Below, in pieces: positions 28,903 through 40,273 of a stretch of 43,805 nucleotides of DNA. The position numbers were made by a program, and so were the translations under genes. The notes under the pieces are model-generated. The model did not search any database. It was not told the DNA's origin and worked only from the letters and a program-made list of their open reading frames with translations. Source of the DNA: an uncultured Clostridia bacterium. GTDB taxonomy: Bacteria > Bacillota > Clostridia > Christensenellales > UBA1242. The stretch lies in contig CAKVEY010000001.1 of NCBI GenBank assembly GCA_934746185.1, forward strand, positions 1-43,805. The letters are read 5' to 3'. The stretch's first letter is position 1. Each line of letters begins with the position of its first letter.

Positions 28903-29787
28903 CTAATTCATATAATCTAATATTTCATTAAAACTCATTTTATTATGAATTGCCATATTTATGCTTGTAGCAACAATTTGTGCCGAATTTTTAACTAAAA
29001 TATCTATTTCTTTATTAGTTACAATTAAACTATCTAATTCCTTTATATCTTTATCAAAATAATCGTTTAACAAATTATTCGCAGTTATTACTAACGGAAC
29101 ACCTATTGATATAACTGGAACTTTCAAGGTACTTTCGTCTAAAACTTTTCGAGCGTTTTCCACTCCACTACCCGGAACTAATCCGTTATTACTTACCTGA
29201 AAACATTTACCTATATAATTATAACTTTTAGATAAAATACTATCAATTAAAATTATAATGTCAGGGTTCACATTTGTTACAACACCTTTAACAATGTCGT
29301 AAGTTTCTATTCCAGTTAATCCTAAAACGCTAGGAGTTAAAGCACAAACTGTTTTTAGTCTTTTGTCTAAAATATTTGGATTATTAATTTTTGCGTGCCT
29401 TGTAATTATTATTTGATTAGTAACAAGTGGACCAATACTATCACTTACATAGTTTTTATTGCCTATTCCTACAACTAAAAAAGTTTCGGCCTTTTTATTT
29501 ATTTTTAAAATATAGTCTTTTATAATTTCGCTTAAAACTTCAATACAATAGTTTTTAACATCACTATCGTAAGGATTTAATTTTTCAGTGTAAATAGAAG
29601 TGTAACTACCTATATCACGATTAAATAATTTAACACCTTTGTCATTCAAAATTTCGATATGCGTTTTTAATAAGTCAAACTTACCTAAAAAAGTTTGTTT
29701 TTTATAGCCTTCTAACGATTTCGATTTAACATTTTGTGAAATTTCAAATAATAAGTCCGAAAAATTTTCCATAAAAAAATTATTCAC
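28903..29787 (-). CDS. gpr: Germination protease GPR (peptidase A25)
   Basis: VVGIGNKNYVSDSIGP, LGLTGIETYDIVKGV and VPGSGVEN..K match Bacillus GPR blocks (GLGNWNVTPDALGP, MGITGIETSDIIKGV, HPGSGVGNKR). It is divergent from rpsT, as in B. subtilis. The start is ambiguous (GTG 29787 or ATG 29772) and neither has an SD. Confidence 0.8.
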   Translation of the reverse strand: MNNFFMENFSDLLFEISQNVKSKSLEGYKKQTFLGKFDLLKTHIEILNDKGVKLFNRDIGSYTSIYTEKLNPYDSDVKNYCIEVLSEIIKDYILKINKKAETFLVVGIGNKNYVSDSIGPLVTNQIIITRHAKINNPNILDKRLKTVCALTPSVLGLTGIETYDIVKGVVTNVNPDIIILIDSILSKSYNYIGKCFQVSNNGLVPGSGVENARKVLDESTLKVPVISIGVPLVITANNLLNDYFDKDIKELDSLIVTNKEIDILVKNSAQIVATSINMAIHNKMSFNEILDYMN

Positions 29788-36052: not shown

Positions 36053-36922
36053 ATGAGCATAAAAAAATGGATAAACAAGAATTGTAAAAGATTAGATAAT
36101 AAAACAGTTCTAATTACTGGTAGCACTAGTGATTTAGCATCATATTTTACTGAATTTTTACTAGAATTTGGCGCAAACTTAATTTTTGCAAATAGGAATT
36201 TAGATAAAAGTGAAAGACAAAAAGAAAAATTATTAAAAAAATTTCCTAACGCAAAAATCAAAATTTTGCAATTAGATTTGTTTGATATAAATATTGTTAA
36301 AAAATTTACTAATGAAATAAAAAATTATAATGTTGACTACTATATTTTTAATTCAGCAATGTTTAACGAAAAAAGAGAAACATCAAATTGTGGATTTGAC
36401 AATATTTTTCAAGTAAATTTTGTGTCCCCTTACTATATAATAAAACAGTTATTGCCTTTGAATGAAAATTCTAAGATAATTGTTATTGGAAGCATTGCAC
36501 ATAATTTTACGAAAGTAGATTTTAATGATATTCAAATGTTAAAAACTAAAAATCCAAATAAAATTTATGGTAATTCTAAAAGATTTTTAATGTATTCCCT
36601 AACTAAACTTTTTGAAAATTCTCCTAAAAATCTAACAATAGTACACCCCGGAATAACACTTACACGTATGACAAGTCATTATCCAAAATCAATAAACTGG
36701 CTTGTCAAGTTAAATGAAAGAATAATATTTCAAAAGCCGAAAAAAGCATCTTTGTCAGTACTTTTAGGAATTTTTAATAACACTCAAACAAACGAGTGGA
36801 TAGGCCCTAAAATAAATAATATATGGGGTTATCCAAAAGTTCAAAAACTCAAAAATTATAGTGACGAAGAAGCAACACAAATTTTCAATATCGCCGAAGA
36901 AATATATAATAAAATCAAATAA
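36053..36922 (+). CDS. Short-chain dehydrogenase/reductase family protein
   Basis: 289 aa. Rossmann start VLITGSTSDLA, NSAM (NNAG-like), a catalytic YGNSK (YxxxK) and VHPG. Confidence 0.75.
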   Translation: MSIKKWINKNCKRLDNKTVLITGSTSDLASYFTEFLLEFGANLIFANRNLDKSERQKEKLLKKFPNAKIKILQLDLFDINIVKKFTNEIKNYNVDYYIFNSAMFNEKRETSNCGFDNIFQVNFVSPYYIIKQLLPLNENSKIIVIGSIAHNFTKVDFNDIQMLKTKNPNKIYGNSKRFLMYSLTKLFENSPKNLTIVHPGITLTRMTSHYPKSINWLVKLNERIIFQKPKKASLSVLLGIFNNTQTNEWIGPKINNIWGYPKVQKLKNYSDEEATQIFNIAEEIYNKIK

Positions 36923-36964
36923 ACTTAATTAGATTAAATTATAAATTAGTGATATATATTAATA

Positions 36965-36986
36965 AAACCCAAGTGCACTAGGGTTT
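36965..36986. terminator. Hairpin between the convergent SDR and DUF4041 genes
   Basis: aaaccc-aagtgcacta-gggttt. The central agtgcact is itself palindromic. Confidence 0.5.
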
Positions 36987-36996
36987 GAAAACTAAT

Positions 36997-38142
36997 TTAA
37001 CTATTTTTTCCTTTTCTTATCATTTCACTTGTTCTAAATTGTTCAGCTTCGGGAAGATTAACAAAATCTACAGTTTTATCATAATTTTTTTGAACGACCT
37101 CTTTTATTTCGTCCAGAGTTACTCTAAAAAATTCTTTTCTTCCATTAACAAGATTGAGTTTTTTATCTTCAAAAGCGTGGTGTAAGGCAGTTTCTAATTT
37201 TGGAGCATCATCCGAAAATATCATAGCATGAATATCAAATTTGAAAGGAACTGATGCTCCACTTAGTTCTGCAATTCTCTCTTCAGGGTCCAATCTTCTC
37301 GTCATTCCTATTTTATAAATATCTTCTCCAAATGCACCTATATTCGAAATAACATAAACATATCCAGCTCTCTTATTAGCTTCTCGATAATCCAAATCTG
37401 CCATAGCCTTATCTACGTCACTAAGATTATTTTCTATTTCATTTTTTCGTTCTAATAAAACTTGTTTTCTCTCTTCGCTTTTTTCAAATTCTATTTGTTC
37501 TTTTAATTTTTTCATTACATTTTCATAATGTAATTGTTCCTTTTCGTATTGTTTTCTTTTTTCCTCAATTTCACGTGCTACTTTTTGCTCTTCTCTTAAC
37601 ATTTCTCGCTTAATGCGAAGTTCTTCTTTTTCTTCCTTCTTTTTTTGTTGAAATTCAAACGCCAAATTAAGTTCTTCTATTTTTAATTTGTAATACTCAT
37701 AATCAATTTCTAAATTATTTGTTTCATTCAAACTATTTTGCATTTCATAGGCTTTAAAAATTCTTTCCTTACTATCTTCATAATTGTTAAATTTTACCTT
37801 ATCTATACAAATGTCACATTCTATATTAAAATTTCTAATAATTTGCTTCGAATTTTCTGCTATCAACCTTTGTCCTAATAATTCGCTACCATTAACTTTC
37901 CAATTTGTTCTAATTATAACAGCTTTTTTCTTTGCAATCATCTTTTTTTGTTTATTTCTAATTTCTTTTAGTTTGTCTTTGTATTGATCCAAATAAGCAA
38001 AGTTATATTGTGGTGTATAAACACCAAAAGATTGATAAAGAATTTCATCATCTAATTGAATAACTTCTTTTTTTAATTGATCTCTAAGGTTAGTTAGAGA
38101 AACTATTTCTTCATTTATATCTTGTAAATTTTCCTTTTCCAT
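36997..38142 (-). CDS. DUF4041 domain plus C-terminal T5orf172/MUG113 (GIY-YIG clan) domain protein
   Basis: 381 aa. The N-terminal half (ILYQSFGVYTPQYNF...) and the long coiled coil resemble DUF4041. The C-terminus (GYVYVISNIGAFGEDIYKIGMTRRLDPEERIAELSGASVPFKFDIHAMIFSDDAPKLETALHHAF......GRKEFFRV) is a textbook T5orf172 motif set. Confidence 0.8.
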   Translation of the reverse strand: MEKENLQDINEEIVSLTNLRDQLKKEVIQLDDEILYQSFGVYTPQYNFAYLDQYKDKLKEIRNKQKKMIAKKKAVIIRTNWKVNGSELLGQRLIAENSKQIIRNFNIECDICIDKVKFNNYEDSKERIFKAYEMQNSLNETNNLEIDYEYYKLKIEELNLAFEFQQKKKEEKEELRIKREMLREEQKVAREIEEKRKQYEKEQLHYENVMKKLKEQIEFEKSEERKQVLLERKNEIENNLSDVDKAMADLDYREANKRAGYVYVISNIGAFGEDIYKIGMTRRLDPEERIAELSGASVPFKFDIHAMIFSDDAPKLETALHHAFEDKKLNLVNGRKEFFRVTLDEIKEVVQKNYDKTVDFVNLPEAEQFRTSEMIRKGKNS

Positions 38143-38151
38143 TTTCCCTCT

Positions 38152-39219
38152 CTACAACAACGCTTTACGTCTTTTTTCATACTCTTCCCTTGATATTTTA
38201 TTATTTTCATATAGAGTCCTTAATTTTTTTAATTTTTGATAAGGTGTATCATTGTTATTGATATTTTCCTCCGTTTCTTTAATATTAGTACTTGTTGAAT
38301 ATATGTGCCCTTCTGTTGCTTTTTTAAATTCTTGCTCCTTTTGCTCAAGCATTATTTCCTTTTCATTTAGTTGCTTTTCTAGTCTATCAACCTCTCTTAG
38401 TCTTTTTTCTTTTAATCGTTTTTCTTCTTCAAGCCTACGTTGCTCTTCTAGTTCTAATTTTAACTTTTGCTCTTTTTCGTTTATTTCAGCATATATTTTT
38501 TTAAAACTTCTATTGTTTAAATAATAAACATTGTCCTTTTTATATGTTTTCATCCCTGCTGGAGTTGTGTAAGTTATACATAGATAAATTGCAATTTCGG
38601 TAATTGGTTTTTTTAATTTTTGTTCTTCAAATATTTTATTCTCTAATAAATTGTATGTCTGAACACTTACCCCTTTAATCGAAGACTCCTTTGAATTAAT
38701 TTTTAATTGATTATATTTTTTTAAATAATTGTTCCATTTAAGTAAATTCTTTTGCACTTTTGAGGATAAATCAATAAATTTTTCCTTGTCTTCTTGCAAG
38801 ACCTGATTTAGATAGTCTTCCAAATCTTCTTTATCAAAAGCAGTTTTACTTAAAGAATATTTATTATATTTATATAAAGCAGAAATGTCACATTCAAAAT
38901 TTTGATTGGCATTTAGATTCAAAAGGTTTTTATACATTTCGCTTGTTTCTTTAACATATTGTAGCCTTTTATTATATAAAACTTGTTCGGCTTTTTGTTT
39001 TTGTTTTATCGCTTCTTGTTTTTCTTCTTCAAGCCTGCGTTGCTCTTCTTCTTTTTTCTTTTTTATTTGAATATATATTATAAATATTACTGGAAGTATC
39101 GCAATAAAAGACGCAATTACTGTAATAATCAAGCCTGTTGGATTTGGTTCTCTTAAAAAAACACTCCATCCTCCAATAGCTAAAAGAACACAAATAATAT
39201 AAACAATTATATAAGCCAT
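38152..39219 (-). CDS. Membrane-anchored coiled-coil protein with a SHOCT-like C-terminal tail
   Basis: 355 aa. Two N-terminal TM helices, two EEQRRLEEEK coiled-coil segments flanking a globular middle region, and the tail YQKLKKLRTLYENNKISREEYEKRRKALL (SHOCT pattern). Only 9 nt separate it from the DUF4041 gene. Confidence 0.7.
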   Translation of the reverse strand: MAYIIVYIICVLLAIGGWSVFLREPNPTGLIITVIASFIAILPVIFIIYIQIKKKKEEEQRRLEEEKQEAIKQKQKAEQVLYNKRLQYVKETSEMYKNLLNLNANQNFECDISALYKYNKYSLSKTAFDKEDLEDYLNQVLQEDKEKFIDLSSKVQKNLLKWNNYLKKYNQLKINSKESSIKGVSVQTYNLLENKIFEEQKLKKPITEIAIYLCITYTTPAGMKTYKKDNVYYLNNRSFKKIYAEINEKEQKLKLELEEQRRLEEEKRLKEKRLREVDRLEKQLNEKEIMLEQKEQEFKKATEGHIYSTSTNIKETEENINNNDTPYQKLKKLRTLYENNKISREEYEKRRKALL

Positions 39220-39243
39220 TTCAACTTCTCCTTAGTTTTGAAT

Positions 39244-39272
39244 ATTATATCATATTTTTAAACATTATTAAA
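39244..39272 (-). promoter_or_regulatory. Extended -10 promoter for the SHOCT/DUF4041 cassette
   Basis: Minus strand reads TGaTATAAT (39252-39244), with a weak -35 (TTTAAT, 39272-39267). A short leader follows, with an AAGGAGAAG SD before the ATG at 39219. Confidence 0.5.
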
Positions 39273-39479
39273 CTGATATCAATTATTTTTTCTTCATTAA
39301 TAATAGAACCTACTAAAAAAATATTTTTTACTTAAAAAATAACTATTAAGAGCTAACACTTTTTAAACTAGCAGAATAAATTATAAACAATGCAAATAAA
39401 TGTAATATTACTATTTGTATAAATTTCTAACAGATTGACTAATAGTTGTTTTTTAACTTTATTTTTGTTTTATTTTTTC

Positions 39480-39508
39480 TTGCAAAATTCTATTAATAAT
39501 TTTATAAT
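39480..39508 (+). promoter_or_regulatory. Promoter of the ECF transporter operon
   Basis: TTGCAA (39480-39485), a 17-nt spacer, then TATAAT (39503-39508). The leader to the folT-like ATG is ~110 nt. Confidence 0.6.
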
Positions 39509-39622
39509 ATTAAAAAAATTTAAAGGGTAATTGCCTATGCGAAAATATATTGTTTTAATTGAACACAAATTAAAATTTGGAATTTAATACTTTTTATAAA
39601 ATAAATATAAAGGAGTATTTTT

Positions 39623-40273
39623 ATGTCAAAAACTAAAAAAATTATATTAGCAGGTTTACTTCTTGCTACAACTATTATTCTTAATAGGTTTTTATCTATC
39701 AAAACGCCCATTGTAGTTATATCATTTGCTTTTATTCCTATAATGCTTTCTGGTATGTTACTTGGTCCAATGTGGACAATGTTAATTGCAGGTCTTGCTG
39801 ACCTAATAGGTGCTTTATTATTCCCTTTTGGAGCATATTTTGTAGGATATACAATTTCTTCAACACTTTCCGGTTTAATTTATGGCCTATTTTTACAAAG
39901 AAAATATAACAAAACCAATAAAAAGTTGTTACTTAATTTAATTATTAGCAGTTTAATTGTGTTAATTGTTTGTAATGGTATATTAAATAGCGTTTGGATT
40001 TATATAACAACAAAAAAAGCAATAGCCGTAATTCTACCTACAAGACTTTTAAAACAAATTATAATGTTACCAATCAATGTAATAGTTATGTCCTCATTAA
40101 ATTTAGGTTTAGAAAAAATGGGCGCGTATAAAAAATTATTTGATGTAGAAATTGAAAACGAGAATATTGAAGCAAATGAAAAAGTTGAAACGAATATAAC
40201 AAGCGATGAAACTACAAACACAGATATAAGTATAAATAAGGAGATTAATGATGATAAAGTTCCAAAATGTTAG
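39623..40273 (+). CDS. folT: ECF transporter substrate-specific (S) component, folate (FolT) type, with an acidic C-terminal tail
   Basis: 216 aa, multi-TM. FIPIMLSGMLLGP...GLADLIGALLFPFG resembles FolT-family S components. SD is AAGGAG. The 3' end overlaps the ATPase gene. Confidence 0.65.
   Translation: MSKTKKIILAGLLLATTIILNRFLSIKTPIVVISFAFIPIMLSGMLLGPMWTMLIAGLADLIGALLFPFGAYFVGYTISSTLSGLIYGLFLQRKYNKTNKKLLLNLIISSLIVLIVCNGILNSVWIYITTKKAIAVILPTRLLKQIIMLPINVIVMSSLNLGLEKMGAYKKLFDVEIENENIEANEKVETNITSDETTNTDISINKEINDDKVPKC

Follow-up and report, generated by a model that had tools for sequence, protein, structure and literature searches.

A transmembrane-less SNIPE (PD-lambda-1) homologue and its upstream membrane-protein partner as a candidate two-component anti-phage system in an uncultured Clostridia bacterium

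What do two adjacent genes, one for a membrane protein and the other for a putative nuclease, do together in the chromosome of an uncultured Clostridia bacterium (Christensenellales, UBA1242)? They lie in a stretch of 43,805 nucleotides (nt) of assembly GCA_934746185.1 (contig CAKVEY010000001.1, positions 1 to 43,805), hereafter the window, in which gene 1 (38152-39219, minus strand) is an open reading frame (ORF) for a protein of 355 amino acids (aa) and gene 2 (36997-38142, minus strand) encodes 381 aa. A first-pass annotation, made from the sequence alone, had described the two genes as co-oriented and 9 nt apart, and both ORFs and the spacing were as described. It had also proposed a defence or abortive-infection module. 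Our analysis assigns gene 2 to the anti-phage family SNIPE (PD-lambda-1) as a homologue lacking a transmembrane (TM) segment, and predicts that gene 1 is a membrane tether or adaptor for this nuclease. The cassette is probably, though by no means certainly, a two-component SNIPE/PD-lambda-1 anti-phage system, with gene 1 serving as the membrane tether of the nuclease.

Gene 2 matched the PADLOC PD-Lambda-1 model PDLC03976 with E=8e-143 (474.8 bits; profile positions 101-476 of 491), the PADLOC model PDLC03977 with E=3.9e-133, and phrog_1847 of PHROGs with E=1.1e-141. PD-lambda-1 was first found by Vassallo et al. 2022; Saxton et al. (Nature 2026, PMC13190303) worked out its mechanism and gave it the name SNIPE. 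SNIPE resides in the inner membrane as one elongated polypeptide, in which a TM helix at the N-terminus is followed by DUF4041, an alpha-helical linker, and finally the GIY-YIG nuclease; it associates with ManYZ and phage tape-measure proteins, and it cuts phage DNA while this is being injected (PMC13190303). The product of gene 2 consists of an N-terminal helix, DUF4041, a helical linker, and a GIY-YIG/T5orf172 domain. Its DUF4041 core (PF13250, labelled 'SNIPE' in gene tables; aa 99-154, 37681-37848, minus strand) was detected by Pfam with E=1.2e-15, and all 56 positions of the profile were covered. DUF4041 of Escherichia coli SNIPE binds both DNA and the tape-measure protein (PMC13190303). 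The nuclease domain of the GIY-YIG clan (aa 260-352, 37087-37365, minus strand) carries the invariant motif residues and was detected by Pfam as T5orf172 (E=4.1e-18) and MUG113 (E=6e-21). Both domains had been named in the first-pass annotation, which had not recognised that the protein belongs to the known SNIPE/PD-lambda-1 family.

As a SNIPE reference, we used a 500-aa protein annotated 'PD-lambda-1' from the E. coli phage PhiR26_1, which is suitable because its residues 223, 250, 253, 257, 264, 305, and 414 are exactly as named in the SNIPE paper. The alignment of gene 2 with this protein begins near reference residue 97 and runs to the end; identity is 40% (over residues ~97-480), with conservation of the GIY, YIG, and Arg motifs. 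Residue E317, encoded by the codon GAA at 37192-37194 (minus strand), is the counterpart of the catalytic E414 of E. coli SNIPE in this alignment, and all of 33 close homologues have it; the E414A substitution abolished both defence and toxicity of SNIPE (PMC13190303). At the position aligned with SNIPE E223, gene 2 has a lysine, K125; an E223K substitution in E. coli SNIPE gave much stronger defence against phage Bas14, and this change is frequent in homologues (Saxton et al., PMC13190303). The portion absent from gene 2 comprises the TM helix, at reference residues 5-24, and the beginning of the stalk. A Kyte-Doolittle hydropathy scan found no TM segment in the protein, and Pfam gave no match to PH, DUF4428, or DivIVA at E<=0.1. 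An AlphaFold2 model of moderate confidence (predicted local distance difference test score [pLDDT] 72.8) starts with a soluble helix of residues 2-36, before the DUF4041 region. A Foldseek search of this model against the PDB was uninformative, with Slx1 as the sole GIY-YIG match at E=2, and no sequence relatives of gene 2 were found in the PDB. These results show, at the level of sequence, that gene 2 is a member of the SNIPE family without a TM anchor of its own: it has the features by which the family is defined in sequence, and not those of a single-gene, self-anchored SNIPE.

The absence of an anchor matters for a nuclease of this kind. In E. coli SNIPE, the anchor holds the nuclease at the inner membrane and away from the chromosome; deletion of the TM helix made the protein toxic through nuclease activity on host DNA, and anchoring was found to prevent autoimmunity (PMC13190303). 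A TM-less SNIPE homologue should therefore need another tether or an inhibitor.

Gene 1 has the architecture of a possible tether. Two TM helices (about aa 4-22 and 30-50; 39070-39210, minus strand) were called by Kyte-Doolittle hydropathy and by an AlphaFold2 model built from a 16-sequence alignment (mean pLDDT 84.7), in which the helices span residues 2-23 and 27-92, the second TM helix running on as a long helix to residue 92. A lysine cluster (KKKK) follows the second TM helix, and by the positive-inside rule the remaining body is therefore predicted to be cytoplasmic. This body begins with an unannotated central alpha/beta domain (about aa 93-235; 38515-38943, minus strand), which was delimited by family alignments and a hidden Markov model (HMM) search and contains the conserved motif C-x-x-YT(S/T)PxG(R/M)(N/K)xY. 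It is followed by a long cytoplasmic coiled-coil helix of 67 residues (about aa 236-302; 38314-38514, minus strand), which was recognised from the AlphaFold2 model and invariant columns and includes a conserved EEKRxKEKRLRE...ATxxHIY stretch. After the coil, the model shows a disordered linker and two short helices (residues 326-338 and 344-354), corresponding to a C-terminal SHOCT domain (about aa 323-355; 38155-38253, minus strand) that is the best-conserved region of the partner. The isolated last 34 aa scored 28.6 bits against Pfam SHOCT (cutoff 27; E=1.1e-6); in the Pfam scan of full-length gene 1, the match was suppressed and not reported. No full-length match to gene 1 was found in Pfam, PADLOC, NCBIfam, or PHROGs, and a Foldseek search of the model against the PDB and BFVD returned nothing at E<0.2. 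For the fold of the central domain, neither Pfam on the isolated domain nor an HMM search of PDB sequences gave a match, and NCBIfam, PHROGs, and PADLOC gave none either.

Gene 1 also contains a 32-nt direct repeat, the two copies of which (38418-38449 and 39018-39049; 97% identical) both encode EEQRRLEEEK. The first copy lies within the family-conserved coiled coil, and the second, at aa 57-68, lies within a 14-aa insert that is missing from the closest homologue (P0002, 47% identical); the repeat therefore looks like a recent intragenic duplication. Placed in the stalk next to the membrane, the extra copy would make that stalk longer by some two helical turns. The two TM helices, the duplicated EEQRRLEEEK segment, and the SHOCT tail had all been noticed in the first-pass annotation, and hydropathy with AlphaFold2, the 32-nt repeat, and the Pfam score, respectively, bear them out.

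Is the pairing of the two genes a property of this locus or of a family? We addressed this in a sample of tens, not thousands, of loci. At 19 of 19 distinct loci, a TM-less SNIPE of 376-382 aa was preceded on the same strand, at a distance of 0-18 nt, by a gene 1 homologue. A six-frame HMM search detected the partner at 18/18 split loci versus 0/45 fused-type loci, including those from phages and IMG/VR; the SNIPEs at these 45 loci are 412-584 aa long and at most 59% identical to gene 2, and their flanks were searched for at most 5 kb per side. In an indexed search, six gene 1 homologues were found besides that of the window (29-47% identical), all directly upstream of a PF13250/T5orf172 protein of 378-382 aa, and the flanking genes were different at each of the six loci. 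A scan with gene 2 using one genome per species returned 41 loci. All ten SNIPEs at least 65% identical to gene 2 were TM-less proteins of 376-381 aa with a gene 1 homologue upstream on the same strand, and these partners (301-464 aa; E values from 1e-18 to 1e-49) had one to three N-terminal TM helices and a SHOCT-like tail. The complete SNIPE ORFs at most 58% identical were all longer (412-584 aa), with N-terminal extensions and no gene-1-type neighbour; many of the longer SNIPEs, including most of those on viral contigs, have an N-terminal TM segment of their own. The partner-SNIPE pair was also present at two more independent metagenome loci. Gene 1 had no match in 50,697 phage records or in IMG/VR, and the SNIPEs on viral contigs were of the fused type. 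Likewise, no close phage copy of gene 2 was found, all phage matches being less than 60% identical and of the fused SNIPE type. Judged from these sequences, the co-occurrence of gene 1 with TM-less SNIPEs is strict and exclusive, with tight junctions. The idea of a membrane partner working with a nuclease effector, already put forward in the first-pass annotation, is supported by this distribution, and conservation of the neighbourhood, which it had proposed as a check, was observed together with variable flanks.

Two observations concern the surroundings of such pairs. In a subfamily with one TM helix (about 300 aa), a YpsA/SLOG-like protein (155-183 aa) and a divergently transcribed helix-turn-helix (HTH) regulator are encoded directly upstream of the partner (L003:5075-5913, L005:5086-5927, L009:5084-5928, and L010:1999-3022; Pfam scores for YpsA/SLOG of 23.6-28 bits, around the cutoff). 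YpsA/SLOG, HTH, partner, and SNIPE genes may form a four-gene cassette there, for which the window contains no equivalent. In addition, one and the same partner-SNIPE protein pair was found in two downstream contexts (L008:5035-9008 and L007:8871-11399), next to polA in one, and in the other next to a block of small genes, with a Zot-family member (PF05707) among them, that resembles a filamentous phage.

The junction between the two genes raises the possibility that they derive from one ancestral gene of 740 aa, broken by a nonsense mutation or read through at the stop codon. In the window, gene 1 ends and gene 2 begins as TAG-AGAGGGAAA-ATG, the 9 nt in between (38143-38151, minus strand) carrying a purine-rich, Shine-Dalgarno-like sequence. 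The two ORFs share a reading frame, with TAG and three codons between them (39219 - 38142 = 1077 = 359 x 3), as a single gene would require. Elsewhere, however, the junction does not behave in this way. The gap was 0-18 nt in 18/18 loci examined, mostly 1 nt or 8 nt, and the genes were in frame in only 4/18; since the frame across the junction varies between loci, the split is conserved and not a pseudogene. Each nuclease gene has its own start codon, mostly with a Shine-Dalgarno-like sequence within or just past the last codons of the partner, and the two genes are likewise separate at 18 other loci, with partner identities of only 26-47%. Furthermore, no partner-SNIPE fusion was present among the best 150 of 883 gene 1 relatives. 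A pseudogene or read-through was rejected on these grounds, and the single-gene explanation is effectively refuted. The layout of the junction instead suggests translational coupling.

We compared how the two proteins diverge across the loci. The identity matrices of partner and nuclease were correlated (Mantel r = 0.66, a value reached in 1 of 5000 permutations), which indicates that the two genes are passed on together. Divergence is much more rapid in the partner: at L001, for instance, partner identity is 47% and nuclease identity 87%. Within the partner, mean pairwise identity rises from the TM region (0.24) through the central domain (0.36) and the coil (0.44) to SHOCT (0.54). The nuclease is least conserved at its N-terminal helix (0.50, compared with 0.72-0.82 elsewhere), which parallels the N-terminal 'adaptor' region of fused SNIPEs, likewise reported to be variable. 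These gradients fit an adaptor role.

Fast evolution of the N-terminal and central parts of the partner would also be expected of a specificity determinant, and gene 2 might be a self-sufficient TM-less SNIPE that targets itself to the membrane, with gene 1 as an accessory specificity or sensing factor rather than an anchor, perhaps recognising an entry component of host or phage. According to Saxton et al. (PMC13190303), a TM segment is missing from 34% of SNIPE homologues, for which intrinsic membrane-targeting N-termini were proposed. Gene 2, however, lacks any PH, DUF4428, or DivIVA match at the threshold given above and has only a 36-residue helix before its DUF4041 region, and the partner has almost no extracellular part available for sensing. 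The complementary distribution, in which the partner accompanies the TM-less nuclease at 19/19 loci and is found at 0/45 loci of the other type, is what an anchor would produce. We regard the accessory-factor explanation, the second rival to tethering by gene 1, as rather improbable.

A profile of the gene 1 family was searched exhaustively against 1.84 billion representative proteins and gave 883 relatives at E<=1e-3, 559 of them at E<=1e-10. They fall into two groups, namely full-length SNIPE partners and many proteins of ~200-290 aa that match the TM helix and central domain only. Among the best 149 of the 883 relatives, to which the Pfam domain counts apply, 48 had an HNH domain, 33 had SHOCT, and two had Mrr_cat; one was a UvrD-like helicase with a weak, below-cutoff match to PD-(D/E)xK. 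The motif C-x-x-YTSPxGRNxY was present in all relatives inspected, and a TM segment preceded it in 41/41 HNH-class proteins. The TM-'YTSPxGRN'-HNH (about 275 aa) and Mrr_cat proteins (e.g., P0204, P0209, and P0271) belong to uncharacterised families, of which PADLOC, Pfam, NCBIfam, and PHROGs recognised only the nuclease domains. They resemble gene 1 in the N-terminal TM helix, the central domain, and the motif, with E values down to 1e-32 against the gene 1 profile, but differ in that the nuclease is in the same polypeptide and there is no coiled coil or SHOCT tail; in gene 1, the coil and SHOCT tail sit where the fusions carry their nuclease. The folds of these nucleases (HNH and PD-(D/E)xK) are unrelated to the GIY-YIG fold of gene 2. 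These matches show that the module formed by the TM segment and central domain of gene 1 recurs, as a homologous sequence, fused to other nucleases.

Three genomic contexts of the module were inspected. The TM-central-Mrr_cat fusion P0271 (459 aa; L053:4075-8849) is encoded between a serine recombinase and terminase/portal genes on a prophage-like contig, and this accessory-gene position in a prophage is suggestive of superinfection exclusion. One HNH fusion is solitary in a chromosome. At L075:1-6327, the start of a 200-aa protein that has only the TM segment and central domain coincides with the stop codon of a 2057-aa helicase-nuclease (DUF4011/AAA_11/AAA_12/MTES_1575/DUF3320), and an Eco57I-family gene lies slightly further downstream; this context resembles a defence island, and the module would again be paired with a separately encoded nuclease. 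It is conceivable, though we propose it only tentatively, that the TM-'YTSPxGRN' module defines a broad, unannotated superfamily of membrane-tethered nucleases with interchangeable effectors. Its effectors would be supplied in cis in the HNH and Mrr proteins (and the one helicase with the weak PD-(D/E)xK match), and as a separate protein in the case of the GIY-YIG SNIPE or the giant helicase-nuclease.

The fusions bear on the main rival to tethering, an antitoxin-like arrangement. Gene 1 would sequester or inhibit the free nuclease and, on sensing infection at the membrane, release it, so that host and phage DNA are both degraded and the cell dies or arrests. The nuclease toxicity of TM-less SNIPE makes a neutralising partner plausible, and the tight translational coupling with the partner first, as in antitoxin-toxin operons, and the strict co-occurrence of both genes agree with it. 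On the other hand, a module that is covalently fused to HNH and Mrr nucleases permits tethering and not release, and for this reason tethering is favoured. Moreover, gene 2 keeps DUF4041, which in SNIPE binds the tape-measure protein at the entry site, and the characterised member of the family defends directly and non-abortively, with survival of the infected cells (PMC13190303). In PADLOC and Pfam, no known family of toxin-antitoxin or abortive-infection proteins was matched by either gene. An antitoxin-like, abortive-infection arrangement appears unlikely. Of the two functions named in the first-pass annotation, defence is upheld by the homology of gene 2 to the characterised SNIPE, whereas an abortive mode is disfavoured by the direct defence of that relative.

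We therefore return to tethering of the nuclease by gene 1 and suggest how such a system may work. Both proteins would be made from one mRNA, with gene 1 just upstream, and the anchor would be supplied in trans. The two TM helices of gene 1 would fix the partner in the membrane and position its alpha/beta domain beside it on the cytoplasmic side, and the coiled coil and SHOCT tail would dock the nuclease, probably through the N-terminal helix of gene 2. The complex would then cleave phage DNA on its entry into the cell, and tethering would avert self-cleavage by keeping the nuclease off the chromosome. Physical binding of the two products and membrane localisation of the nuclease are what we infer from the arrangement of the genes, and an anti-phage activity, its timing, and a direct rather than abortive mode of defence would follow by analogy with SNIPE.

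Several points weigh against this proposal. The contact between the two proteins is itself deduced, and the TM calls come from Kyte-Doolittle hydropathy and AlphaFold2 helices rather than from a dedicated predictor. A profile HMM of 17 partners detected no homology to the N-terminal regions of fused SNIPEs, and a profile-profile comparison of the two families gave a probability of 14.6% over 16 columns. Simple gene fission is rejected for this reason, the partner HMM matching nothing in the fused N-terminal extensions, and the partner could consequently do something other than tether. TM-less SNIPEs may target themselves to the membrane through PH-like or DivIVA-like N-termini (Saxton et al., PMC13190303), and the N-terminal helix of gene 2 might do the same. 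No function is established for SHOCT, and self-oligomerisation of the domain was not borne out in one experiment (Eberhardt et al. 2013, PMC3581485). All examples of the pair come from metagenome-assembled genomes of uncultured Clostridia-like bacteria or Gastranaerophilales. Finally, the cassette in the window is surrounded by housekeeping genes, with no defence island.

This last point leads to the question of whether the locus serves defence at all. The window is core chromosome, encoding gyrase/topoisomerase-IV-type subunits, a Clp ATPase, PcrA, LigA, PolA, and a germination protease, and T5orf172 domains are known from phage homing endonucleases; gene 2 might thus be a homing or otherwise selfish endonuclease, or a housekeeping DNA-processing enzyme, next to an unrelated membrane protein. 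Yet gene 2 matches the PD-Lambda-1 defence models over its full length and not through the nuclease domain alone, the differing flanks at every locus speak for an accessory rather than a core gene, and fused relatives occupy accessory-gene positions in prophages. A T5orf172-type phage homing endonuclease was rejected, given the presence of DUF4041 and the chromosomal housekeeping context. A function outside defence is, in our estimation, very improbable.

The immediate neighbours are a short-chain dehydrogenase/reductase (SDR) gene (36053-36922, plus strand) and an energy-coupling factor (ECF) S-component gene (39623-40273, plus strand). The flanks are as given in the first-pass annotation; the view that the cassette had been inserted between them is borne out neither by composition nor by an empty site, and rests solely on the different flanks elsewhere. 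The GC content of the cassette (0.26-0.28, compared with about 0.25 for the window) reveals no compositional island or local deviation, for which the first-pass annotation had proposed a test, and an exact look-up of the SDR protein for an empty site gave only another contig with the same arrangement. Gene 1 and the ECF S-component gene are divergently oriented and flank an AT-rich intergenic region of ~400 bp (39273-39622). ECF vitamin transporters are frequently controlled by riboswitches; Rfam detected no riboswitch or other RNA in the region, including this intergenic sequence, at gathering thresholds. The germination protease (Peptidase_A25, E=1.5e-56; 28903-29787) shows the host to be an endospore former; with a GC content of about 25% and with Clostridia metagenome-assembled genomes holding the nearest relatives of the cassette, the contig is assigned to uncultured Clostridia-like Bacillota.

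Upstream of gene 1, a Shine-Dalgarno sequence AAGGAG (39228-39233, minus strand) was read 8 nt before the ATG, and a promoter-like site (39244-39271, minus strand) consists of a TG-extended -10 element, TGaTATAAT (39244-39252, minus strand), and a -35-like TTAATA (39266-39271, minus strand) with a spacer of 16 nt, matching 10/12 consensus positions in addition to the TG motif. The extended -10 element had been reported as the cassette's own promoter. The site is present, but this AT-rich DNA has no excess of promoter-like matches (21 observed versus 17.2 +/- 4.0 in shuffles), so that the promoter is plausible and neither proven nor statistically distinctive. The hairpin terminator that had been placed after gene 2 fared less well: the structure (about 36958-36996, minus strand; inner stem AAACCC/GGGUUU, then UUUAUU) is weak, at -7.6 kcal/mol (z = -1.4), folded equally well in 17/200 shuffles, and was not picked up by a terminator scan.

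If gene 1 does anchor gene 2, the finding touches on how SNIPE tells self from non-self. This discrimination rests on membrane tethering, and about a third of the homologues have no TM segment; a separate, co-translated anchor gene would be one answer to how a large gut-associated clade of TM-less SNIPEs avoids the chromosome. Defence annotation that takes PD-Lambda-1 for a one-gene system would overlook the partner, and the nuclease cloned alone could be toxic or inactive. The same partner module on HNH and Mrr nucleases hints that DNA cleavage at the entry site is more widespread and more modular than one family. Were the superfamily interpretation correct, cutting DNA where it enters the cell would be an immune strategy of a general and modular kind rather than a trait of SNIPE alone, and SHOCT would gain its first function as a docking element that recruits a separately encoded nuclease.

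How does the cassette compare with known systems? Like SNIPE, gene 2 has the entire cytoplasmic architecture and the catalytic glutamate (E317 for E414). Unlike SNIPE, which is one self-anchored polypeptide, the system here comprises a TM-less nuclease and an always-present upstream gene with two TM helices, a coiled coil, and SHOCT. What is known is SNIPE as a single protein; what appears to be new, from the sequences compared here, is a two-gene form with a separate membrane partner. We found no description of such a form in the searchable literature, where SNIPE figures as one protein both in the original paper and in reviews published until August 2026, and the neighbouring genes of TM-less SNIPEs were not analysed by Saxton et al. 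(PMC13190303); the remark in the first-pass annotation that the pairing has no characterised function holds to that extent.

The cassette shares with Kiwa (the membrane sensor KwaA and the DNA-binding effector KwaB) the use of a membrane component where phage DNA enters, together with a cytoplasmic DNA-targeting effector from a gene of its own, and Zorya (the ZorAB membrane complex with the nuclease-helicase effectors ZorC/ZorD) follows the same concept. Neither system, however, has a sequence relationship to the cassette, gene 1 being without a PADLOC match; Kiwa blocks late transcription without cleaving DNA, and Zorya runs on a proton-driven motor. With respect to SHOCT (PF09851), its C-terminal position in gene 1 and its association with a membrane protein and a coiled coil are typical of the domain (Eberhardt et al. 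2013, PMC3581485). Neither the architecture of gene 1 nor its neighbour appears in that paper, which has 0 mentions of DUF4041 or T5orf172 (PMC3581485), and no link of SHOCT with SNIPE or DUF4041 was found in the searchable literature. The cassette offers a functional context for a domain previously without one, and the setting of gene 1 suggests that SHOCT has a role in docking a nuclease partner.

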